Shown: one piece after another, positions 13,913 to 62,158 of the stretch | How the letters are laid out: the number at the start of each line of letters is the position of its first letter | Numbering within the stretch: the stretch's first letter is position 1 | Assembly: GCA_964416765.1 (NCBI GenBank) | Contig: CAYQEU010000001.1 | Span: forward strand, 130,541-194,540 | Source of the DNA: an uncultured Candidatus Saccharibacteria bacterium | GTDB lineage: Bacteria > Patescibacteriota > Doudnabacteria > UBA920 | Direction: 5' to 3' | DNA: 64,000 bases | The notes under the pieces: model-generated | Databases searched by the model: none | Seen by the model: only the letters and a program-made list of their open reading frames with translations | Told to the model about the DNA's origin: nothing | Position numbers and translations under genes: made by a program

Positions 13913-15550
13913 CTACCTTAGGTGGGCTGTAAAGAATTCTGGGGTAGCCTCAATTTTCTTGTTGGGGTTGAATATATCGGCCGGATCGAAGATCATCTTG
14001 GTTTCCATGAATAAATCGCAAATCTCGCGGGAATACATCTTTTTAAGGAAGAATCCGCGGATAAGGCCGTCGTTGTGTTCCGCGCTCATTGATCCGCCAT
14101 ATTCCTTAATCAGGTCAAAAACCTGGTTGGACATCTCGAGGATGATTGCTCGGTGCTTTGGGTCCTTAAAGTCCATCAGTGGCATAATGTGGAAGTTAGC
14201 GTCACCCGCGTGTCCGGCAATGGTGTACACGAAAGAGGGGAACTTCGCGAAGATTTCGTATAGGCGGGGCATGAACTCAGGCAGCTGGTCCGGATGCACT
14301 ATTATATCTTCAATAAAGCAAGCCGGGACTTTATCTATATTATGAAGCCTTAGCATGTTGTAACTCTCGCGACGGATGGTCCAATACTTCTGCAAACTTT
14401 CAAAGGTCTGGGAAATTTTAGCGTTCATGTGGTATTTGTCCTGAATTTCATTATGCGCCTGTTCAAGCTTTTCCTTAACTTCTTCCGGGTTGTACCCAGT
14501 AAATTCGGCGAACAGAATGGTGGCCGGAAGACGACCGAATAATTTTCGCAAAACGTCCGGAATGAGACTGAAAGCTAATTTCAACCGGTTGCCTTTCATT
14601 TTGGCGAAGATTTCGGGCAGGTATGTAATGGCCAGGCTCAAGGTTGCCTTATCATACAATTCAAAAGCCTCAGGCTTGTACTGTTTGATGGTATTAACAA
14701 TGTTGCCGATCTCGTGGAGGTCGGGCAGGGAAATCACCAAGAGTCCGCTGGACCGCTTAGGCTTCACCAAACGGAACTTAATCTTGGTAATTATTCCTAG
14801 TGTCCCTTGGGAACCCACGATAACCTGCGCGAGGTCAAACTTTCCGGTTTCTTTATCATAGATGTTCCAAAGGTAATAGCCGGAAGAGTTTTTTGAGGTA
14901 GAGGGCCTAGCCTGTTTGATGGCATCGTAATGGCCCGAAACCATCTCATACATTTTCCGGTAGAGGTTTCCTTCAAAGTCCTTTTGGGCAATTTTGGCTT
15001 TTAAACCGGCTTCGTCCAGGGCTTCCACAAAATATTCTTTACCGTCCTCCAGAACCACCCAAAGCCCCTCAACGAAATCCTTAACTTGTCCGTAAGAGAG
15101 GGATTTTTCGCCTCCCGCGTTATTCCCAACCATGCCGCCCAGCGCGCAATACGCTTTGGAAGCAGGGTAGGCGGGCATGAGCAGTCCCCGGGCTAGTGTT
15201 GATACTTCAAAATCCCGGTACCATACCCCGGGTTGGGCGATGGCGTAATCCTGGCCGACTTCTTCAATCCGGTTCATGTGTTCCATTACGTCAACAATAA
15301 TGGAGTCGTTAATGGAACCTCCGGTCATGTCGCTTCCGGCCGCGCGCGGGGTAATGGAAAGCTCAGGATGGTCGACTTTCTTCTCTCGTACCCACTTCAC
15401 CAACGCCTTTACGTCATCGCTGTCTTTAGGGCGAACTACGCATGTAGGCTGGATGCTGAAAATGCTGTCATCCCTGCTGTATTTTGTTAACGTTTCCTGG
15501 TCCGTGAGGACTTCACCTTGGATTTTTTGTTTCAGTTCATCAAAGTTCAT
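13913..15550 (-). CDS. FAD-linked oxidase (GlcD / D-lactate dehydrogenase / alkyl-DHAP-synthase superfamily)
   Basis: 545 aa; N-terminal FAD_binding_4 (PCMH) pattern RAAGSDMTGGS; C-terminal FAD-oxidase_C region. Confidence 0.8.
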   Translation of the reverse strand: MNFDELKQKIQGEVLTDQETLTKYSRDDSIFSIQPTCVVRPKDSDDVKALVKWVREKKVDHPELSITPRAAGSDMTGGSINDSIIVDVMEHMNRIEEVGQDYAIAQPGVWYRDFEVSTLARGLLMPAYPASKAYCALGGMVGNNAGGEKSLSYGQVKDFVEGLWVVLEDGKEYFVEALDEAGLKAKIAQKDFEGNLYRKMYEMVSGHYDAIKQARPSTSKNSSGYYLWNIYDKETGKFDLAQVIVGSQGTLGIITKIKFRLVKPKRSSGLLVISLPDLHEIGNIVNTIKQYKPEAFELYDKATLSLAITYLPEIFAKMKGNRLKLAFSLIPDVLRKLFGRLPATILFAEFTGYNPEEVKEKLEQAHNEIQDKYHMNAKISQTFESLQKYWTIRRESYNMLRLHNIDKVPACFIEDIIVHPDQLPEFMPRLYEIFAKFPSFVYTIAGHAGDANFHIMPLMDFKDPKHRAIILEMSNQVFDLIKEYGGSMSAEHNDGLIRGFFLKKMYSREICDLFMETKMIFDPADIFNPNKKIEATPEFFTAHLR

Positions 15551-53539: not shown

Positions 53540-55663
53540 ATGCCACGAGAATATCCAATAGAAGCAACCCGTAATATCGGGATTATCGCTCACATCGATG
53601 CTGGTAAAACCACCACCACCGAAGGTATCTTGTACAACACCGGTATGATCCACAAGATCGGCGCGGTTCACGAAGGTGAAACCGTGACTGACTGGATGGA
53701 ACAGGAACGCGAACGCGGTATCACCATTACCTCCGCTGCGGTTACCTGTTACTGGAAGCCTCAATACATCAAGATCGAAGGCGATAAAGAATATAAGATT
53801 AACATTATCGACACCCCAGGACACGTTGACTTCACCGTTGAAGTGGAACGTTCTCTTCGCGTGCTCGACGGCGCTGTCACCGTATTTGACGGAAAGATGG
53901 GTGTAGAACCCCAGTCCGAAACCGTGTGGCGCCAGGCTGACAAGTACGGCGTACCGCGTATGTGTTTCATTAACAAGATCAACCAAACCGGCGGCGACTT
54001 CTACAAGTCTTTGGATTCCATCCACACCCGTTTGACCAAGAATGCTTTTCCGGTACAACTTCCAATTGGTTTTGAAAAAGACGTTATTGGCGTGGTTGAC
54101 CTTGTCCAAATGAAGTCTTACACCTACAAAGACTACACCGACAAAGAGTTTACCGTTGGTGAAGTACCGGCTGACATGAAAGAAAAGGCTGAAAAGTACC
54201 GCCACGAATTGATTGAAAAGGTTGTCGAATTCGATGACCAACTCATGGAAAAATATTTGGGCGGCGAAAGCCTGACTGAAGAAGAACTATTGCTCGCGAT
54301 CCGCAAAGCTACCCGTTCCGGTGAATTCTACCCGGTATTCGGTGGTGACGGACGCGGTATCATTGTTCGTACTTTGCTCGACGGCGTTACTAACTTCTTG
54401 CCATCTCCTTTGGATAAAGGTCCCGTTAAGGGGACCAACCCGAAGACCGGCGAAGAGCTGGAGCGTAAGCCTTCCGACACTGAACCGTTTACTGCTTTAG
54501 CTTTCAAGATTGCGACTGACCCGTTTGTGGGCCGTCTTGCTTTCTTCCGTGTTTATTCCGGAACTTTGACTGCCGGTAGCTACGTGCTCAATGCCCGCAC
54601 CGGGAACAAAGAACGTGTTGGCCGTATCGTGCGTATGCGCGCTGACCAGCGTGATGAAGTTAAGGAAGTTTTTGCCGGTGACATCTGCGCGCTGGTAGGA
54701 CCAAAAGACACTATTACCGCCGATACCCTTTGCGCCGAAAACGCGCCGATCGAACTTGAAAAGATTAAGTTCGCTGATCCGGTTATTTCCATGGCTATCG
54801 AGCCAAAGACAAAGGCTGACCAGGAAAAGATGGGTATTGCCATGCAGAAGCTTGCTGAAGAAGACCCAACCTTCAAAGTTTCTTCCAATGAAGAAACCCA
54901 GCAGACTATTATTGCCGGTATGGGCGAACTCCACTTGGAAATTTTGGTTGACCGCATGAAGCGCGAATTCAAAGTTGAAGCCAATGTTGGTAAGCCCGAA
55001 GTTGCCTACAAGGAAACTTTCAAGAAAGAAGCCCAGGCTGAAACCAAGTATATCCGCCAAACTGGTGGTCGCGGTCAATACGGCCACGTCTACCTGCGCG
55101 TTACTCCGTTGGAACGCGGCGCTGGTTACGAATTCGTTGATGAAATCGTCGGCGGTGTTATTCCTAAGGAATACATCAAACCGGTTGATAAAGGTATTCA
55201 GGAATCTGCCGCTAACGGTGTTATTGCCGGTTATCCGGTAGTAGACTTCAAGGCTACTCTGTACGATGGTTCCTACCACGAAGTTGACTCTTCTGAAATG
55301 GCGTTCAAAATTGCCGGTTCCAAAGCATTCCAGGACGCTGTTAAGAAAGCTGACCCGATCCTTCTTGAACCGGTTATGAAAGTTGTTGTAACCACTCCCG
55401 AAGCCAACATGGGTGACGTGATCGGCGACTTGAACTCCAAGCGCGCCCGCATCAACGAAATGGAAGACATTACCGGCCGCAAGGTTGTAACTGCTGAAGT
55501 TCCGTTGTCTGAGATGTTCGGTTACGCCACCGCGCTTCGTTCCATGACCCAAGGACAAGCTTCCTCTATAATGGAATTCTCCCACTACGCTGAAGTACCG
55601 CGCAATGTTGCTGAAAAGGTAATTGAATCCCGCGCAGGTATTAATGTTCGTAAGGGACAATAA
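53540..55663 (+). CDS. fusA: elongation factor G
   Basis: 707 aa; [20 protein letters not shown], five-domain EF-G. Confidence 0.95.
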
Positions 55664-55682
55664 ATTCGTGTAGTATAGACCT

Positions 55683-56027
55683 ATGGCTAACCTCCAAGAC
55701 ATAATCAAACTTGTTGAAAACGACAACGGCAAAGTGTTTGTTGTCGGTGAAGACGGCGAAGTTAGGTTGGTTATGCTCAAGCCGGAAGAATACCAGCAGT
55801 TACTGCTGGGAAAGCTACAGCAGGGGATAAAAGACATAGAAGAAATCAATAAAGAGATTACCCGGGCGCAGCTTAACGAGAATATTGGGGTGGAACTAGC
55901 GGACTTGCCGCCAACCAAGCCTCAACGCGTGGATTTGCGTTCCGAGGTAATTGACCCAAACTTCAATTTCGACGCCGCTCCCGGAGAGGAGTATGAGTCG
56001 ATAAAGCCGGAGTTTGAGGATATATAA
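55683..56027 (+). CDS. Phd/YefM-antitoxin-like fold protein with long acidic C-terminal tail (orphan)
   Basis: N-terminal KVFVVGEDGEVRLVMLKPEEYQQL resembles Phd/YefM; no toxin partner; located between fusA and tuf. Confidence 0.4.
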   Translation: MANLQDIIKLVENDNGKVFVVGEDGEVRLVMLKPEEYQQLLLGKLQQGIKDIEEINKEITRAQLNENIGVELADLPPTKPQRVDLRSEVIDPNFNFDAAPGEEYESIKPEFEDI

Positions 56028-56057
56028 AATGACGGGACCCGCTTACACAGCGGGTCC

Positions 56058-56086
56058 TTGACTTATTAATCCAAACTCCTTACAAT
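56058..56086 (+). promoter_or_regulatory. sigma70 promoter TTGACT-N17-TACAAT for tuf
   Basis: Near-consensus hexamers; preceded by GGACCCGC/GCGGGTCC hairpin; about 185-nt leader. Confidence 0.55.
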
Positions 56087-56273
56087 ATCTCTGAATTGGC
56101 GTGTTTGTGCGCGCCTTTTTAAATCAATTAATGTTATTGCGGAAACGGGTTAAGGTGACCCTGGATTCCTTAGTGAAAAAAAGAGAGACCCTCTCTTTTC
56201 CCCCGAATCGATAGAGGGAGAAGCGAGGGTATCTCGGGCGCTAAACCGTAAGAGCTTTAACGAAAGGTAAAGA

Positions 56274-57461
56274 ATGGCAGAAAAATTTGACCGTTCCAAG
56301 CCGCACATCAACGTAGGTACTATTGGTCACGTTGACCATGGTAAGACTACTTTGACTGCCGCTATTACCACTGTGCTTGCCAAGTCTGGCCATGCCAAAG
56401 CCCGCGACTACGCTGGTATTGACAATGCCCCAGAAGAAAAGGCACGTGGTATCACCATTAACACCTCTCACGTAGAGTACGAGTCTGACAAGCGTCACTA
56501 CGCTCACGTAGACTGTCCTGGTCACGCCGACTACATCAAGAACATGATTACCGGTGCTGCTCAAATGGATGGTGCCATCTTGGTAGTTTCCGCTACCGAT
56601 GGTCCGATGCCTCAGACCCGCGAACACATCTTGCTCGCCAACCAGGTTGGTGTAAAGAACATTGTTGTTTACATGAACAAGTGTGACATGGTTTCCGACA
56701 CTGAATTGTTGGACCTTGTTGAAGAAGAAATTCGTGACCTGTTGACCAAGTACGACTTCCCAGGCAAAGACACCCCGATCATTCGTGGTTCCGCTTTGAA
56801 AGCTTTGGAAGGCGACACTTCTGACATGGGCGAACCGTCCATCCAGAAATTGGTTGACGCCATGGACACCTACTTCCCAGATCCAGTTCGCGCTACCGAC
56901 CAGCCTTTCTTGATGCCTATCGAAGACATCTTCTCCATTGAAGGCCGCGGTACCGTAGTAACCGGTCGTATCGAACGTGGTGAAATCAAGATCAACGAAG
57001 AAATTGAAATCGTTGGTATCCGCCCAACCCAGAAGACCGTTGTAACCGGTATCGAAATGTTCAACAAGCAGTTGGACTCCGGTATGGCTGGTGACAACGC
57101 CGGTCTTTTGCTCCGCGGTACCAAGAAGGATGAAGTAGAACGCGGTCAGGTTCTTTGTAAGCCGGGTTCCATTACTCCTCACACCGAATTCGACGCTGAA
57201 GTATACGTTTTGACCAAAGAAGAAGGTGGACGTCACACTCCATTCTTCAAGGGTTACAAGCCTCAGTTTTACATCCGTACAACTGACGTAACCGGTGAAG
57301 TTACTTTGCCGGAAGGCCAGGAAATGGTTATGCCTGGTGACACCGTAACTGTTGGTGTTAAACTGATCACCCCGGTAGCTTTGGAAGAAAAATCCAAGTT
57401 CGCTATCCGTGAAGGTGGCCGCACCGTTGGTGCTGGTGTAGTAACCAAGATCTCCAAGTAA
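56274..57461 (+). CDS. tuf: elongation factor Tu
   Basis: [22 protein letters not shown] motifs. Confidence 0.95.
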
Positions 57462-57476
57462 TCTACTTCTAGATTT

Positions 57477-57510
57477 AAAAAGAGCTCCCGAAAGGGAGCT
57501 CTTTTAGTTT
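57477..57510 (+). terminator. intrinsic terminator after tuf
   Basis: AGAGCTCCC-gaaa-GGGAGCTCT + TTTTAGTTT. Confidence 0.75.
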
Positions 57511-57512
57511 GG

Positions 57513-58229
57513 GTGTATAATATAGTTATGTTGGTCAAAGACCTAATGACACCAAAGGAAAGGGTAATAAGCGTTAAGCCCACTACTTTAATCAGTGAAG
57601 TAGCGGAGATTTTGCACACTCGGCGTATTACCGGGGTCCCGGTGGTTAATGACGGGGGAAGAGTGTTAGGCACGATTTCCGAACGGGATTTTATAACTTC
57701 CAGCTCCGATATTTACCTCCCAACTTATATAAAGCTTTTGTCCAATATGGATTACGTGCAGGGCGGCAAGAAAGAGTTACCCTATGTGGCAAACCAGATT
57801 GTCCGAGCCACGGCTGACAGTATCATGAACCAGAAAGTAACCTTCGTTCATCCTGAAACCACCCTGGAACAATTAGCCGCGGTATTCGCGTATGACCGGG
57901 TCAATCCGGTGCCGGTGACCGACAAAAATAACCAGCTTCTCGGAATCATTTCCCGGAGCGACTTAATTAGGTTTTATTCACCGTCGCAAGTCCAGGAGTC
58001 TTATGTCGCCGAGAATAGGGAGCGCATGATAGACCAGCAGGTAAAATACACCCAGACTTTTTACAGTTCCAAGTTCGCGTACGTGGCGAAAGCACGCGCT
58101 AACATTTGGCTGACTACCGCGATTGTGCTTTTCCTGGTTGGGTTTGTTGCGGGGATAATATACGTGGCTAATCCGGCCGCTTTCCAAAAAGAGGACAGCA
58201 ACGTGCCTATTAACGCTAACATCCCATGA
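57513..58229 (+). CDS. CBS-pair domain protein with C-terminal TM anchor
   Basis: Two CBS motifs; C-terminal hydrophobic helix. Confidence 0.6.
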   Translation: MYNIVMLVKDLMTPKERVISVKPTTLISEVAEILHTRRITGVPVVNDGGRVLGTISERDFITSSSDIYLPTYIKLLSNMDYVQGGKKELPYVANQIVRATADSIMNQKVTFVHPETTLEQLAAVFAYDRVNPVPVTDKNNQLLGIISRSDLIRFYSPSQVQESYVAENRERMIDQQVKYTQTFYSSKFAYVAKARANIWLTTAIVLFLVGFVAGIIYVANPAAFQKEDSNVPINANIP

Positions 58230-58255
58230 AGAAAACGCGGCGAACTGCCGCGTTT

Positions 58256-58846
58256 TTAGTTTGACCGGTAAACTGCACGATACCGCCGAAGGATCGTGGC
58301 TATTGAAAGCAGCAGGAGCAAAACAAAAATTGAATTCAGAACCGCGAGGTTGCCAACATGGCCGTAGGGCATCAAGATATAGCAGAGTAAGGCAATCCCA
58401 ATCAACACCAAACGCTGAACCCGCTCAATGGGCCCTTTACCGAGCGATTTTTCATTGAGACCGTGGGCGCCGCCGCTCGCCTTAATATAGCTGATCATAA
58501 AAGAAGCGATTACCAAACTTATGGCAAGCGGCCAGGAACACAACCCAGCGAAACTAAAAGCTGAAATTATTATTGCGTCTGAAAAGCGGTCCAGGCTCGC
58601 ATCCAAAACAGCGCCAAAGGCGCTGACTTGGTTAGTGGCCCGGGCGTAAGCCCCGTCCAGGGAGTCGATCGCGGTTAGGATAAGGGCAAATATGGCCCAG
58701 CCATAGAAGTGGTTTATTAGCAGCCACAAAAAAGCGAGTGGTGGAATAACCCCTAATATCGTGATAAAATTAGGGCTGAAGCGCGGAAATTGCCGCGCTA
58801 TTTTTCCTACTAATTCATCACTGGAAGTTTTAAGCTGTTTAAACAT
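58256..58846 (-). CDS. CDP-alcohol phosphatidyltransferase family protein
   Basis: DG..AR........G...D...D motif (DGAYARATNQVSAFGAVLDASLDRFSD); 196 aa polytopic. Confidence 0.7.
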   Translation of the reverse strand: MFKQLKTSSDELVGKIARQFPRFSPNFITILGVIPPLAFLWLLINHFYGWAIFALILTAIDSLDGAYARATNQVSAFGAVLDASLDRFSDAIIISAFSFAGLCSWPLAISLVIASFMISYIKASGGAHGLNEKSLGKGPIERVQRLVLIGIALLCYILMPYGHVGNLAVLNSIFVLLLLLSIATILRRYRAVYRSN

Positions 58847-59498
58847 GGCTTACAAAATAGATTTACATACCCACTCTATTGTATCACGGGACGGCGGTAT
58901 TACCGCGCGCCAATATCGTGAGATTTTGGCTTCGAAACTTGATTATGTCGCCATAACCGACCATGATGAAATTGCCACGGAATTGATTAGCGATCAGAGA
59001 CTGGGCGAAAAAATTATTCTGGGACAAGAAATTGCCGCTCTGGAAGGTGACTTCATTGGGCTGTATTTGAAGGAAACCATACCCGAAGGTTTAAGTTTTG
59101 CCGACGCGGTCGCAGAAGTGCGCCGCCAAGCCGGGTTGGTTTACATCCCGCACCCTTGGGAGAAATGGCGCCGTGGTCTGCCGGGCGCGGTACTGGAAAA
59201 AAATAAGCATCAAATCGATATTGTCGAAGTTTTTAATGCCCGTACCCCGCGGCAGTACTATACGGACTTAGCTCTCCACTTCGCACAAAAGAATAATTTT
59301 GCCATGGCTAGTTCCAGCGACGCGCACGGTGCTTTGGGGGTGGGTTCCGCTTACTCTATAATTAAAGAAATGCCTACACGCGAAAACCTGGTACGGCTAT
59401 TGCGGGAAGGGGAGTTAGTGCGCACACATCCGCCCCTGCGCAGCTACCTCTACGCATCGTTAAATCGAGTAACCAAACGTTTTAAAAAGAATGGCTAA
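58845..59498 (+). CDS. PHP-domain phosphoesterase
   Basis: DLHTHS...DH..... metal-binding His pattern; start ATG 58845 shares CATG with divergent gene start. Confidence 0.6.
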   Translation: MAYKIDLHTHSIVSRDGGITARQYREILASKLDYVAITDHDEIATELISDQRLGEKIILGQEIAALEGDFIGLYLKETIPEGLSFADAVAEVRRQAGLVYIPHPWEKWRRGLPGAVLEKNKHQIDIVEVFNARTPRQYYTDLALHFAQKNNFAMASSSDAHGALGVGSAYSIIKEMPTRENLVRLLREGELVRTHPPLRSYLYASLNRVTKRFKKNG

Positions 59499-60012
59499 GG
59501 AAATATTGTTTGTATTTTTATTTTTTTTACCGGCAGGCATCGCTAACATGTTTCCCGTCTTCGCCGCGCGCTTGCCTCTGCTCAAGCAATGGAACACCCC
59601 TCTGGACTTTGGAGTGTCGTGGCGAGGGACCAGATTGTTAGGGAGCCATAAAACTATTCGCGGATTGGTAACGGGCATTATTGCCGCAATCGTTACTACT
59701 TTAATAATTTTTCGGTTCACTGATTTAGGACTTTCGGTAAATCCGGCGGTGTTGGGTTTACTCCTCGGTGCTGGTAGTTTGGTGGGGGACGCGGTAAAAA
59801 GCTTTTTTAAACGCCAAAGCGGTGTTCCTTCAGGCAGGGCATGGTTTCCCTTTGACCAGATAGATTATATTTTGGGAGCGATGGCGTTTACGTTCTTTTA
59901 TGTTCCGCTCTCCCTGACCCAATATTTGCTAATGCTCGTTTTGGGTTTTGTGCTCCACATTATTGTTGTGTATGTCGGTTATTTAACAAATCTTCGTGAT
60001 CAAGCCATCTAA
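59491..60012 (+). CDS. CDP-archaeol synthase-like (CarS/DUF46 family) membrane protein
   Basis: 173 aa, 4-5 TM; GDAVKSFFKRQSGV...FDQIDY matches CarS motif GDxxxSFxKRxxG...DQxD rather than CdsA PGHGG motif. Confidence 0.6.
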   Translation: MAKEILFVFLFFLPAGIANMFPVFAARLPLLKQWNTPLDFGVSWRGTRLLGSHKTIRGLVTGIIAAIVTTLIIFRFTDLGLSVNPAVLGLLLGAGSLVGDAVKSFFKRQSGVPSGRAWFPFDQIDYILGAMAFTFFYVPLSLTQYLLMLVLGFVLHIIVVYVGYLTNLRDQAI

Positions 60013-60886
60013 AAAATTTTTCCGGCTCTGGCCATACCATGTCCGCGACCTAGGTGTGAATGCGGTTACATTTATTTTGTCCATGGCGCGGCGCGGACGT
60101 CAGCCAGACTATAAAATGATCAAGGAGCTCCATTGGCACGAAGACAATGGCGCCGCCGGACCATCTTCATTTGCGGGGGATAGTATAACCGTTTTGTCCT
60201 GGAATGTGTTTAAGGGGTTCTATGAACACAAGCTGATTTCGATCATGCATGATATCATCCGGGAGCACGAGCCCGATATTATCGCTTTCCAGGAAGCTCC
60301 TATGTATCCCGATGGGTCATTCTTGGAATGGCCGGAAGATTTCCCCCCAGCGTCAATGACCTATATATCCAGCCAAAAGAAGCGCCCCGGGGTGTATGAG
60401 TTTGAGCATACCGGGGAATTGACTGCCTCACGCATGCCTCACCAGGAAGCCCAATTCCACTTGTTCCCCAAAGTCACAAACCAGATTGTGTTTAGCGATC
60501 TGGAATATTTGCATCGAAATTTTTTGTATTCCAAGTGGAGGACGAAGCGCGGAACTTTGGGACTTTATAATGTGCACATGGAAAGCGTAGCCACCCCACT
60601 GAATCGTTTGGCGGAAGTCCAGGCTTTATATGACGTTATTGAGAAGAATGATGATGATATTACCGTGGTAGCAGGGGACTTTAACACCATTATGGGTGCC
60701 ACACTGGAACCGGCAGTCCAGTTTTTCCGCAAAAAAGGGTTTGTTAACGGTCTCCGGCCCGGTTTGCCGCAGTGGGTTCCGAGGCTGGACCACATCTTCG
60801 TTAGGGGCGCTAAAAGTATAAAAACCACTATTTTACCTCGGTTAGGGTCAGACCATAAGCCGGCCATAGCCAAAATAGAACTTTAG
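59996..60886 (+). CDS. endonuclease/exonuclease/phosphatase (EEP) family protein with N-terminal TM
   Basis: WN.....(Q)E, GDFN, SDH catalytic motifs. Confidence 0.65.
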   Translation: MIKPSKKFFRLWPYHVRDLGVNAVTFILSMARRGRQPDYKMIKELHWHEDNGAAGPSSFAGDSITVLSWNVFKGFYEHKLISIMHDIIREHEPDIIAFQEAPMYPDGSFLEWPEDFPPASMTYISSQKKRPGVYEFEHTGELTASRMPHQEAQFHLFPKVTNQIVFSDLEYLHRNFLYSKWRTKRGTLGLYNVHMESVATPLNRLAEVQALYDVIEKNDDDITVVAGDFNTIMGATLEPAVQFFRKKGFVNGLRPGLPQWVPRLDHIFVRGAKSIKTTILPRLGSDHKPAIAKIEL

Positions 60887-61016
60887 GGCAGTAGGGATTT
60901 GACATTTCCTGAATATTCTTATAAAATATGACAAACAGCTAAGGTATTAACCCTAGCCCTGTTTATTAAGTCTTTAATCGGCCTAAAAAGCTTTTAGGTA
61001 AGCTCTTTTTACCTCT

Positions 61017-61349
61017 ATGACAAAGGATACCAAGGAAATTAGCAAGCCAAAAATCCGGATTAAAATTCGGGCTTATGATCATAAGCTAATTGACCAAAGT
61101 TCCCAACAAATTGTGGAAACTGCTAAGCGTACTGGTGCCCAGGTTTCTGGTCCAATTCCGCTTCCGACAGAAAAGTCGAAGTATACTGTGCTTCGTTCGA
61201 CATTCGTCCACAAAGACAGTCGTGAGCAGTTTGAAAGACGCGTACATAAGCGATTAATTGATATTTTAGATCCAACCCCGAAGACTATTGATTCATTGAC
61301 CAATTTGAATCTTCCAGCAGGGGTGGACGTCCAGATTACCGGCCAGTAG
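61017..61349 (+). CDS. rpsJ: 30S ribosomal protein S10
   Basis: [14 protein letters not shown] core with short N-terminal extension. Confidence 0.9.
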
Positions 61350-61489
61350 GCTAAAAAATTAAAAAGTTAGTAAATCGGTTCTGATTTCTCCCGAGCCTGA
61401 ACCGCTCCCGAATTCAGATAACTATTTACCCAAAGGTTAAGAAATTCATTTTTCATGGGTATAATAGTGTGCCCATTTTTTATTTTCAT

Positions 61490-62158
61490 ATGAACTTTAT
61501 AGTCGGCAAAAAACTCAATATGACCCAGCACTTTTTGGAAACCGGTGAAGTCATCCCGGTAACCGTTTTGAAAGTGCCTACAATGGTAGTAACCCAAGTT
61601 AAAACCGCCGACGGTAAGGACAAGTATTCCGCAGTCCAGGTCGGCGTTTCTCGTTCCGTAGGCGGAACTAAGCGCGTAAATAAGCCTTTGGCCGGCCACC
61701 TCAAAGGCACCAAAGCCGGTATCCTGACAGAATTTCGTGTTTCCGATACAGCCGATTACGAAGTAGGGAAGAAGATTGATGTTTCAAGCTTCCAAGTCGG
61801 AGAAATAGTTGACTGTATTGGTATCATGAAAGGCCGCGGTTTCGCCGGCGCTATCAAACGACATGGTTTTGCTGGGTTCCCAGCCAGCCACGGTCATGAC
61901 CGCCCACGCAGTGTGGGTTCTATTGGTATGCGTTTTCCTCAGCACGTTGCAAAGGGCCGCCGCATGGCTGGCCATATGGGTACTCAGTCCGTTACCGTAA
62001 AGAACTTACAGGTTGTTGAAGTTGATGCCGCCCGCGGTACTATTGCCGTAAAAGGCGCTGTCCCGGGAACCCGCAACGGTGTTGTCCGAATTGTTTCCAC
62101 CGGCAAAGTGAAGCCGTTGGTTCCAGAAGTTAAGGAAGACAATAAGAAGAAGAAATAA
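61490..62158 (+). CDS. rplC: 50S ribosomal protein L3
   Basis: GKKLNMTQ start region (ATG 61490 preferred over GTG 61469); conserved L3 core. Confidence 0.9.
   Translation: MNFIVGKKLNMTQHFLETGEVIPVTVLKVPTMVVTQVKTADGKDKYSAVQVGVSRSVGGTKRVNKPLAGHLKGTKAGILTEFRVSDTADYEVGKKIDVSSFQVGEIVDCIGIMKGRGFAGAIKRHGFAGFPASHGHDRPRSVGSIGMRFPQHVAKGRRMAGHMGTQSVTVKNLQVVEVDAARGTIAVKGAVPGTRNGVVRIVSTGKVKPLVPEVKEDNKKKK

Follow-up and report, generated by a model that had tools for sequence, protein, structure and literature searches.

Gene Content of the tuf-rpsJ Junction

The DNA analyzed here, referred to as the window, is a 64,000-nucleotide stretch of contig CAYQEU010000001.1 (positions 130,541–194,540 of the forward strand, assembly GCA_964416765.1) from an uncultured Candidatus Saccharibacteria bacterium. 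Between its tuf and rpsJ genes lies a group of lipid-related genes, three of which recur together across Patescibacteria and are predicted to rebuild a phospholipid head group. The window is part of a genome of the Patescibacteria (candidate phyla radiation), ultra-small bacteria. Base composition is uniform along it (GC 0.46–0.52), and the closest genomes are metagenome-assembled genomes (MAGs) labeled Saccharibacteria.

Five open reading frames (ORFs) separate tuf (EF-Tu, 56274–57461, + strand; called from its translation and 95% identical to the homolog in the related locus L001) from rpsJ (S10, 61017–61349, +), which heads rpsJ-rplC-rplD-rplW (ORF translations; 94% identical in L001, with PF00338 in syntenic loci). 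The first encodes a CBS-pair protein with a C-terminal membrane anchor (57513–58229, +; Pfam CBS 95.3 bits over two domains, transmembrane (TM) segment at residues 194–224). Convergent with it is the gene for a CDP-alcohol phosphatidyltransferase of 196 residues and about six TM helices (58256–58846, −; PF01066, CDP-OH_P_transf, 62.2 bits). There follow a stand-alone, soluble PHP/PHP_C metal-dependent phosphoesterase of 217 residues (58845–59498, +; PHP_C 35.5 bits, PHP 16.2 bits), a CarS-like protein of 173 residues and five TM helices, predicted to be a CTP:lipid-phosphate cytidylyltransferase (59491–60012, +; PF01864, 80.8 bits), and a soluble YbhP-like EEP protein of 296 residues (59996–60886, +; PF03372, Exo_endo_phos, 47.1 bits). 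All five ORFs named in a preliminary description of this DNA are present, and each matches its Pfam family above the gathering threshold.

That description called the group a five-gene insertion. The part common to relatives is a four-gene cassette of transferase, PHP, CarS-like and EEP genes, and the CBS gene is found only in this genome. The accompanying claim that most bacteria have rpsJ immediately after tuf goes too far: in E. coli K-12, 17 unrelated genes lie between tufA and rpsJ.

The cassette is tightly packed. The divergent transferase (−) and PHP (+) genes overlap head to head by 2 nt within a CATG at 58844–58847, an arrangement repeated in L001 (5352–5353), the P0006 contig and L088 (5343–5344). 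The two starts share this tetranucleotide and leave no intergenic space, so that the promoter of either gene has to be located within the other. The start of the PHP gene is most likely ATG 58845 (MAYKIDLHTHS) rather than GTG 58761, because the homologs and the profile begin there. At the other end, the CarS-like stop and the EEP start overlap by 17 nt.

Transferase, PHP and CarS-like Genes Form a Conserved Triad

A homolog scan with the CarS-like protein, restricted to one genome per species, returned 267 relatives, and the counts below refer to the best 80 loci of these 267. Nearly all belong to Patescibacteria (Saccharibacteria/Saccharimonadia, Levy-, Roizman- and Dojkabacteria, and Paceibacterota), with a few carrying Chloroflexota or other labels. 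What recurs in them is a triad, defined here as a CDP-alcohol transferase of the archaetidylinositol-phosphate synthase/phosphatidylinositol-phosphate synthase (AIPS/PIPS) type, a small PHP phosphoesterase and a CarS-like protein. The PHP gene adjoins CarS in 67 of the 80 loci, and a CDP-alcohol transferase gene is nearby in 56 by search with the window protein or 62 by clustering. The same window-protein search recovers the EEP gene in 4 loci, the tuf/rpsJ flank in 3 and the CBS gene in none.

Two layouts of the triad occur. Most Saccharimonadia have all three genes on one strand, in the order transferase, PHP, CarS, and the divergent layout, with the transferase gene reversed, is that of the window lineage, Levybacteria, Roizmanbacteria and some others. 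Spacing is close: the distance from PHP stop to CarS start is at most 10 nt in 54 of 55 pairs (median −4 nt), and the gap from transferase to PHP is at most 20 nt in 39 of 41 co-directional pairs. The surroundings vary, with 29 distinct flanking contexts among 44 complete triads. This tight linkage, across class-level divergence and in changing surroundings, is our main evidence that the three proteins work together, and it supports the earlier proposal that the CarS-like protein is functionally coupled to the CDP-alcohol phosphatidyltransferase.

None of seven diverse archaeal CarS contexts contains the triad. PHP is adjacent to CarS only in Geoglobus, and one Methanospirareceae contig has a CDP-OH transferase gene 4 kb away. 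An archaeal origin of the cassette was rejected on this basis: because no CarS neighborhood of the seven has the triad, the bacterial cassette is not a recent copy of an archaeal operon.

Among the 80 loci, L016, L066 and L080 are labeled Limnocylindrales/Limnocylindria, and L041 is labeled Gammaproteobacteria (a 1.6-Mb chromosome). These labels are probably binning or annotation errors, since the triads concerned stand in full Saccharimonadia-type or Levy-type synteny.

The CarS-like Protein Resembles Archaeal CarS Rather Than CdsA

The PF01864 (CarS) profile matches the 173-residue protein over its full length (80.8 bits, cut-off 22; residues 5–170 on profile positions 5–172 of 175), whereas the match to PF01148 (CdsA) is partial (31.8 bits; residues 53–112 on positions 169–230 of 264). 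This comparison had been proposed in the preliminary description, and it comes out for CarS. Among the NCBIfam equivalogs used in this work (cut-offs in bits: PRK04032, 148; archin_ph_syn, 180; PIPSynth, 170; PRK11624, 385; PRK05421, 144), the CdsA model PRK11624 gives only 20.2 bits. The GD..KSF.KR..G...DQ.D block is present, as first noted (GDAVKSFFKRQSGVPSGRAWFPFDQID), with a longer spacing before DQ than had been written, and the PGHGG motif is indeed absent. The protein, with its 173 residues and five helices, shows none of the marks of CdsA membership that we looked for: a full-length profile match, about nine TM helices, a length of 260–290 residues and PGHGG.

The only solved relative found by sequence is Aeropyrum pernix CarS (5GUF, E = 7e-13). 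The AlphaFold2 (AF2) model of the window protein, with a mean predicted local distance difference test (pLDDT) of 95.1, consists of five long helices and was matched by Foldseek to 5GUF with TM scores of 0.75/0.81, a root mean square deviation of 2.0 Å and E = 3.7e-6; Thermotoga maritima CdsA came next (TM 0.45–0.51). The polar cavity residues conserved in CarS (P.D.G, KT..G, GD...SF.KR, DQ.D and H), which make up the cytoplasmic CTP/metal site, are present. Across 62 bacterial and archaeal CarS sequences, D39, G51, K54, G58, G99, D100, K107, R108, G115, Q123 and H156 are invariant, and T55, S104, D122 and D125 are at least 90% conserved. By sequence and predicted fold, the protein is CarS-type and not CdsA.

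Bacterial CarS proteins nevertheless stand apart from archaeal ones. In a neighbor-joining tree (distance-based and unrooted, of 46 bacterial and 60 archaeal sequences, the archaeal sample being biased to A. pernix relatives), all 46 bacterial sequences fall into one long-branched clade that excludes the 60 archaeal sequences, and no branching of the bacterial proteins within archaeal CarS was seen; the topology fits deep ancestry as well as an ancient transfer. Mean identity is 32% between the groups and 45%–49% within them, and motifs differ by group: KT.RG and SFFKRQ in bacteria versus KT.EG and SFvKRR in archaea. The “archaeal flavour” once ascribed to these genes must be qualified: the bacterial proteins have a clade of their own, and the gene context lacks ether-lipid genes and in some operons includes a YegS-type lipid kinase (see below). 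In many MAGs the CarS-like genes already carry the automated annotation “CDP-archaeol synthase.”

The Transferase Resembles Enzymes That Use Inositol Phosphate

For all ten triad transferases scored, taken from both layouts, the best NCBIfam match is archaetidylinositol-phosphate synthase (94–153 bits) and the next is phosphatidylinositol-phosphate (PIP) synthase (84–99 bits); the PgsA and PssA profiles give 26–43 bits or no match and are never best. All ten remain under the equivalog cut-offs and therefore form a distinct subfamily. The best solved relative by sequence is the PIP synthase PgsA1 of Mycobacterium tuberculosis (6H53, E = 2.6e-11). The CDP-AP signature D(x)2DG(x)2AR...G(x)3D(x)3D is found in the window protein at D61, D64, G65, A68, R69, G78, D82 and D86, positions that are kept in 57–64 of 64 triad homologs.

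In the M. tuberculosis enzyme (MtPIPS), the phosphate of inositol phosphate (Ino-P) is recognized by R155 and R195, as established by mutagenesis, together with R94, S132 and K135 (PMC4634129, PMC6506517), and R94 has been described as conserved in Ino-P-using enzymes (PMC6506517). The corresponding residues of the window transferase are R145, R188, R87, S119 and K122, with R142 also among the Ino-P residues. Among the 64 triad transferases, the equivalents of R155 and R195 are each conserved in 60, that of R94 in 58 and that of S132 in 59.

A gene for myo-inositol-1-phosphate synthase (MIPS; family Inos-1-P_synth, PF01658) occurs beside some of these triads. A local tblastn search of the window and 92 loci (1.03 Mb), for which the query was an M. 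tuberculosis Ino1 sequence, gave matches at 47%–55% identity (E ≤ 1e-94) in exactly four of the 92 loci, each beside triad genes and each confirmed by Pfam (76–122 bits). The MIPS gene adjoins the transferase gene in L041 (3614–4708) and L048 (2723–3841), lies 1.5 kb upstream in L018 (1192–2340) and directly follows CarS in L079 (1017–2186). In three of these four loci a LysR regulator gene is divergent from it. An inositol phosphate head group is very probable in view of the AIPS/PIPS-type scores, the conserved Ino-P arginines and the four loci with an adjacent MIPS gene.

A Proposed Route from Phosphatidic Acid to Phosphatidylinositol

We propose that the triad is a conserved patescibacterial operon that converts salvaged phosphatidic acid to phosphatidylinositol (PI) by way of CDP-diacylglycerol and PIP, with a CarS-type activator and with the PHP protein as PIP phosphatase, and we put the probability of this reading at roughly 0.55. 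The substrates, the role of the PHP protein and the acyl nature of the lipid are what we infer in it, whereas families and folds, the conserved catalytic and acceptor-site residues, the persistence of the operon, the linkage of MIPS and kinase genes in relatives and the transcription signals are shown by the sequences. In the first step, the CarS-like protein would convert a membrane lipid phosphate, most likely phosphatidic acid taken from the host, to CDP-diacylglycerol at the expense of CTP, as its family, fold and catalytic residues suggest; it would thereby play the part that CdsA has in other bacteria. In the second, the AIPS/PIPS-type transferase would combine the CDP-lipid with myo-inositol-1-phosphate to give PIP and CMP, a reaction to which the subfamily scores, the acceptor-site arginines and the MIPS adjacency all point. 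In the third, the soluble PHP protein would remove the head-group phosphate to leave PI, a role suggested by gene linkage.

In some lineages the phosphatidic acid may be supplied by a kinase encoded in the operon. Eight or nine Levy-type loci have a gene of the YegS/Rv2252/BmrU lipid kinase family (DAGK_cat plus YegS_C) between PHP and CarS, with overlapping stops and starts (L002, 4954–5874; L005, 5096–6004; L018, 5072–5986; also L040, L048, L060, L066, L038 and L011), which fits the feed of a diacylglycerol-type lipid into phosphatidate. Patescibacteria have been described as lacking de novo phospholipid synthesis, as is the case for one cultivated member, whose fatty acids match those of its host (bioRxiv 10.64898/2026.06.21.733656), and a soil Saccharibacterium has been predicted from annotation to convert scavenged phosphatidate via CDP-diacylglycerol to PI and phosphatidylinositol mannosides (Starr et al., 2018; PMC6031116).

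Several observations weigh against this proposal. The CarS-like protein scores 116.9 bits with PRK04032 (CDP-2,3-bis-(O-geranylgeranyl)-sn-glycerol synthase), under the cut-off of 148. Archaeal CarS, where characterized, has a strong preference for digeranylgeranylglyceryl phosphate (DGGGP) relative to phosphatidic acid and fails to complement E. coli cdsA (PMC9385802); the use of diacyl phosphatidic acid by a CarS-type enzyme is thus a prediction without precedent. The window transferase is likewise below its cut-offs, with 127.9 bits for its best match, archaetidylinositol-phosphate synthase (180), and 88.6 for PIP synthase (170), followed by 28 for pgsA. MIPS was found by tblastn neither in the 64-kb window nor in 76 of the 80 flanks. 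In about a dozen of the 80 loci CarS has no partners nearby, and L079 has transferase, CarS and MIPS without PHP. L018 has two HAD hydrolase genes between MIPS and the transferase, a possible alternative phosphatase, and the structural neighbors of the PHP protein include PsfC and RNase AM.

The PHP Protein as a Candidate Phosphatase

The predicted metal ligands of the PHP protein (H8, H10, D16, H40, E62, H103, D159 and H161) are invariant in 52 homologs. Its AF2 model (pLDDT 93.4) is closest in the PDB to the uncharacterized PHP phosphoesterases 3E38 and 2ANU (TM0559), at TM scores of ∼0.7. PsfC and RNase AM are also among its nearest structures, a set from which no function can be assigned by homology. 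The protein has no TM segment, and neither Pfam nor NCBIfam gives it a PgpA or HAD match. It is nonetheless a candidate PIP phosphatase, because a transferase that uses inositol-1-phosphate yields a phosphorylated lipid that needs dephosphorylation. Two papers on mycobacterial PIPS describe the PIP phosphatase of these bacteria as unidentified (PMC4634129, PMC6506517); its Bacteroides counterpart is of the PgpA type and is encoded in a cluster with PIPS, with a HAD hydrolase in an alternative cluster (PMC9246714). If the assignment made here from gene linkage is right, PHP would be a third, non-orthologous solution. The early suggestion that the PHP and EEP proteins could be lipid-phosphate or head-group phosphatases thus stands in part: the PHP protein belongs to the pathway as the most constant partner, and the EEP protein is lineage-specific.

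The PHP protein could instead remove the pyrophosphate produced by CarS, hydrolyze the CDP-lipid in the manner of Cdh, or act on nucleotides or RNA, with the lipid being dephosphorylated by another enzyme (HAD, PgpA-type or EEP) or remaining as PIP. In Geoglobus ahangari (L081, 5001–6295) and a related marine-sediment contig (L091, 4001–5340), CarS is convergent with a PHP/PHP_C gene and no transferase gene is present; the Geoglobus protein has 208 residues and is 31% identical to the window PHP (E = 1e-27). This pairing with CarS, and not with a transferase, leaves room for a CarS-linked role such as pyrophosphate or CDP-lipid hydrolysis. Six further archaeal lineages, as well as L090 and L092, showed no PHP gene beside CarS, and a metagenome scan with the Geoglobus PHP gave three loci, one of them with CarS. 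The arrangements in L079 and L018 also favor a different role, as do the closest characterized PHP folds, which include RNase AM and nucleotide phosphatases, and the addition of an EEP phosphatase-superfamily gene in the window lineage. However, in most loci the PHP gene is flanked by those for the transferase and CarS, the stop codon of one gene overlapping the start of the next, as would fit a stoichiometric member of the pathway, and no other phosphatase, which an inositol-1-phosphate transferase needs, is conserved across the loci. We consider another role for PHP unlikely, without being negligible.

Other Head Groups and Other Lipids

If the transferase used glycerol-3-phosphate (or glycerol-1-phosphate) as acceptor, the product would be phosphatidylglycerol and PHP would be a phosphatidylglycerol-phosphate phosphatase. 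Much of the logic above would carry over, since a PgsA-type reaction, too, has a phosphorylated acceptor and calls for a phosphatase, and the conserved arginines show phosphate binding rather than binding of the inositol ring as such. The scarcity of MIPS genes in the window and most flanks, and weak pgsA matches of 28–43 bits, are further points in favor. Yet the pgsA profiles score three to five times lower than AIPS/PIPS in every transferase tested and are absent from the match list of the co-directional Saccharimonadia-type protein. MIPS, where present, is physically linked to the triad, the R94 equivalent is kept in nearly all transferases (58/64), and a separate pgsA was annotated in a Saccharibacterium by Starr et al. 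(PMC6031116). Phosphatidylglycerol is, on balance, an improbable product.

The lipid itself could be archaeal in type. CarS would then make CDP-archaeol from DGGGP or archaetidic acid, the transferase would make archaetidylinositol phosphate and PHP would yield archaetidylinositol, the ether lipid being either self-made or scavenged from archaeal hosts. The best profiles are indeed the archaeal equivalogs PRK04032 and archaetidylinositol-phosphate synthase, the fold is that of A. pernix CarS, a homologous small PHP accompanies CarS in Geoglobus and the marine-sediment contig, and characterized CarS enzymes prefer DGGGP (PMC9385802). Against this, the known hosts of Saccharibacteria are Actinobacteria, and the cultivated Patescibacterium has host-type fatty acids (PMC6031116; bioRxiv 10.64898/2026.06.21.733656). 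The bacterial CarS clade is separate, at ∼32% identity and with motif changes such as KT.EG to KT.RG, and the YegS-type kinase built into some operons belongs to a family annotated as acylglycerol kinases. Genes for ether-lipid synthesis (GGGPS, UbiA-type DGGGPS, glycerol-1-phosphate dehydrogenase and geranylgeranyl reductase) are absent from the 64-kb window and from the recurrent neighbors of the 80 loci, a gene context that argues against DGGGP as the substrate of the CarS-like protein. An archaeal-type lipid is quite unlikely in our view.

The CTP_transf_1 superfamily (PF01148) includes CTP-dependent polyprenol kinases, and the partial PF01148 match of the CarS-like protein might suggest a CTP-dependent lipid kinase (dolichol/phytol-kinase-like) or an enzyme acting on polyprenyl phosphate for envelope glycans rather than on a glycerophospholipid. 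The full-length profile match, the fold and the invariant residues, however, point to CarS; the partner that recurs is a CDP-alcohol transferase, which needs a CDP-activated donor; and some operons already include a separate lipid kinase. This reading is most improbable.

The Cassette Lies between Transcription Units

The four-gene cassette occupies the tuf-rpsJ junction in the window, L001, L003, the P0006 contig and L088. This placement has been inherited within one lineage, as the three core proteins of the window group with those of L001 and L003. In the Levybacterium L060 the cassette is instead between fusA and tuf, and tuf is directly followed by rpsJ.

Signals at the junction place the cassette outside the flanking operons. 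A terminator-like hairpin with a U-run lies directly 3′ of tuf (57479–57510, +); the 48 nt from 57465 to 57512 fold at −23.8 kcal/mol (z −4.8), none of 200 shuffles being as stable. The hairpin is absent from the list of a simple scanner. A second, bidirectional hairpin (58231–58258, both strands) separates the convergent CBS and transferase genes, with −17.4 kcal/mol (z −4.6) on the + strand, −15.8 kcal/mol (z −5.5) on the − strand and a U-run after each. Downstream of the cassette and directly upstream of rpsJ, TTGACA-17-TAAAAT (60899–60927, +) is the best sigma-70-like match in 5.4 kb (11/12) and the likely promoter of the S10 operon. With a terminator after tuf, a bidirectional terminator after the CBS gene and a separate S10 promoter, the cassette lies between transcription units. 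Read-through from tuf was considered and rejected on account of the strong hairpin and U-run and of the separate S10 promoter. An Rfam scan of 55600–61500 gave no significant RNA element.

The preliminary description took the position of these genes to imply constitutive, essential expression. In 75 of the 80 loci the triad lies elsewhere in the genome, an outcome that the description itself had named as grounds for refutation, and in the window it sits in an inter-operon gap; the positional argument is not supported. The tuf-rpsJ location is a quirk of the lineage that says little about expression; the junction tolerates insertions.

About 150 nt upstream of tuf lies a promoter-like TTGACT-17-TACAAT (10/12), and a GC-rich hairpin with a T-run comes no more than ∼12 nt after it (56058–56123, +); the element may be a leader/attenuator or the terminator of the fusA unit.

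Accessory and Neighboring Genes

The EEP gene follows CarS in the 4 loci counted above and also in the P0006 contig and L088. Its product scores 63.7 bits with NCBIfam PRK05421.1-4 (cut-off 144) and is 28% identical to E. coli YbhP over its full length. In E. coli K-12, ybhP belongs to a ybhP-clsB-ybhN cluster (L089, 821542–824497), beside the gene for cardiolipin synthase B; this is a second, independent association of the EEP family with phospholipid head-group enzymes. YbhP is annotated by domain only, and for this reason no function transfers from it. We regard the EEP protein as a lineage-specific accessory outside the conserved core and possibly a phospholipid head-group hydrolase.

The CBS gene was rejected as a member of the system: the 80 loci, the closest relatives L001 and L003 among them, have no homolog of this variable filler gene. 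The slot between tuf and the transferase that it fills in the window is empty in L001 and the P0006 contig and is taken by a cold-shock gene in L088.

A 320-residue protein, c35, is encoded directly upstream of CarS in L053 (5016–5978, between PHP and CarS) and L004 (5067–6011), in both cases on the + strand. It was rejected as a second lipid kinase because it does not resemble the YegS-type gene product and matches nothing in Pfam or NCBIfam.

A PIG-L/LmbE-family deacetylase gene adjoins the triad in 25 loci (L009, 6561–7292, −, and 24 Saccharimonadia) and also stands near it, in another layout, in the Levybacterium L060 (7472–8140, +). The best NCBIfam matches of this deacetylase, BshB2, MshB and Mca, are all under cut-off. 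A glucosaminyl-inositol lipid is conceivable, since the family includes deacetylases of N-acetylglucosaminyl (GlcNAc)-inositol and GlcNAc-PI.

Two further ORFs of the window were noted. Between fusA and tuf, an acidic ORF of 114 residues (55683–56027, +) has no family match; it is 67% conserved in L001, and a 121-residue ORF takes the same place in the P0006 contig. Farther away, a 545-residue FAD-linked oxidase (13913–15550, −) combines FAD_binding_4 and FAD-oxidase_C, an architecture common to D-lactate/glycolate oxidases and alkyl-DHAP synthase.

Implications

PI synthesis in Saccharibacteria is already known as an annotation-level prediction (PMC6031116). The triad and the role of PHP appear undescribed: in the literature on CarS/CDP-archaeol synthase in the candidate phyla radiation/Patescibacteria, we came across neither the triad, nor CarS-type activation in such a role, nor PHP as the phosphatase. 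CarS is not a subject of Coleman 2019, and Jaffe 2021 has nothing on the triad genes.

Patescibacteria are thought to take lipids from their hosts, and head-group rebuilding in them is barely known. The operon may show a CarS-type enzyme serving a bacterial, acyl-lipid context, with consequences for how far CarS and CdsA can be said to enforce the “lipid divide.” It also puts forward PHP, a defined soluble protein that is easy to express, as a candidate for the PIP phosphatase step. Inositol lipids would link Saccharibacteria to their actinobacterial hosts, the main bacterial producers of PI, and an operon this compact and widely conserved offers an entry to lipid remodeling in organisms that can now be cultured and mutated.

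A broader interpretation, which we offer tentatively and hold to be less probable than not being the case, is that CarS-type activation is not an archaeal specialty at all: a deep-branching patescibacterial CarS/AIPS-like pair would act on host-derived diacyl lipids, and PHP, also found beside CarS in Archaeoglobales, would be the long-missing prokaryotic phosphatase for PIP and archaetidylinositol phosphate. If this were true, the lipid divide would fail at the CDP-activation and inositol head-group steps.

Comparison with Known Systems

The CarS-like protein shares with archaeal CarS (A. pernix 5GUF; Archaeoglobus fulgidus AfCarS) the PF01864 family, a length of ∼170–180 residues, five TM helices, the fold, and D39, K54, D100, K107, R108 and Q123 together with D122 and D125 of DQxD. 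It differs in being bacterial, in belonging to a separate clade below the equivalog cut-off and in having no ether-lipid genes nearby. Its likely substrate, diacyl phosphatidate, is one that characterized CarS handles poorly (PMC9385802).

The archaeal archaetidylinositol-phosphate synthase pathway provides the best transferase profile (128–153 bits for window-type genes) and a donor likewise supplied by CarS. The window-type transferases nevertheless score below the cut-off of 180, and the three genes are unclustered in the seven archaeal contexts.

The inositol-lipid cluster BT_1522–BT_1526 of Bacteroides thetaiotaomicron (MIPS, PIPS and a PgpA-type PIP phosphatase) is similar in that PIPS is clustered with a dedicated phosphatase and in that MIPS joins the triad in four loci here (PMC9246714). 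In contrast, the Bacteroides phosphatase is PgpA-type or HAD rather than PHP, and the cluster has no CarS-type enzyme (PMC9246714). The BT1523-type profile gives only 33–75 bits with the transferases described here.

The E. coli ybhP-clsB-ybhN cluster resembles the window lineage in its EEP gene, a full-length ybhP homolog that in both cases lies beside a gene for a phospholipid head-group enzyme. The partner in E. coli is a phospholipase D-type cardiolipin synthase, whereas here it is CarS/PIPS-type.

The actinobacterial PI pathway (CdsA, then PgsA1/PIPS, then an unidentified PIP phosphatase) has the same predicted chemistry, and its transferase has the same CDP-AP signature and Ino-P residues. 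In the patescibacterial triad, however, activation would fall to a CarS-type enzyme rather than to CdsA, the transferase is nearer to the archaeal AIPS profile than to bacterial PIPS, and all three predicted steps, including that of the PHP phosphoesterase, are brought together in one operon.

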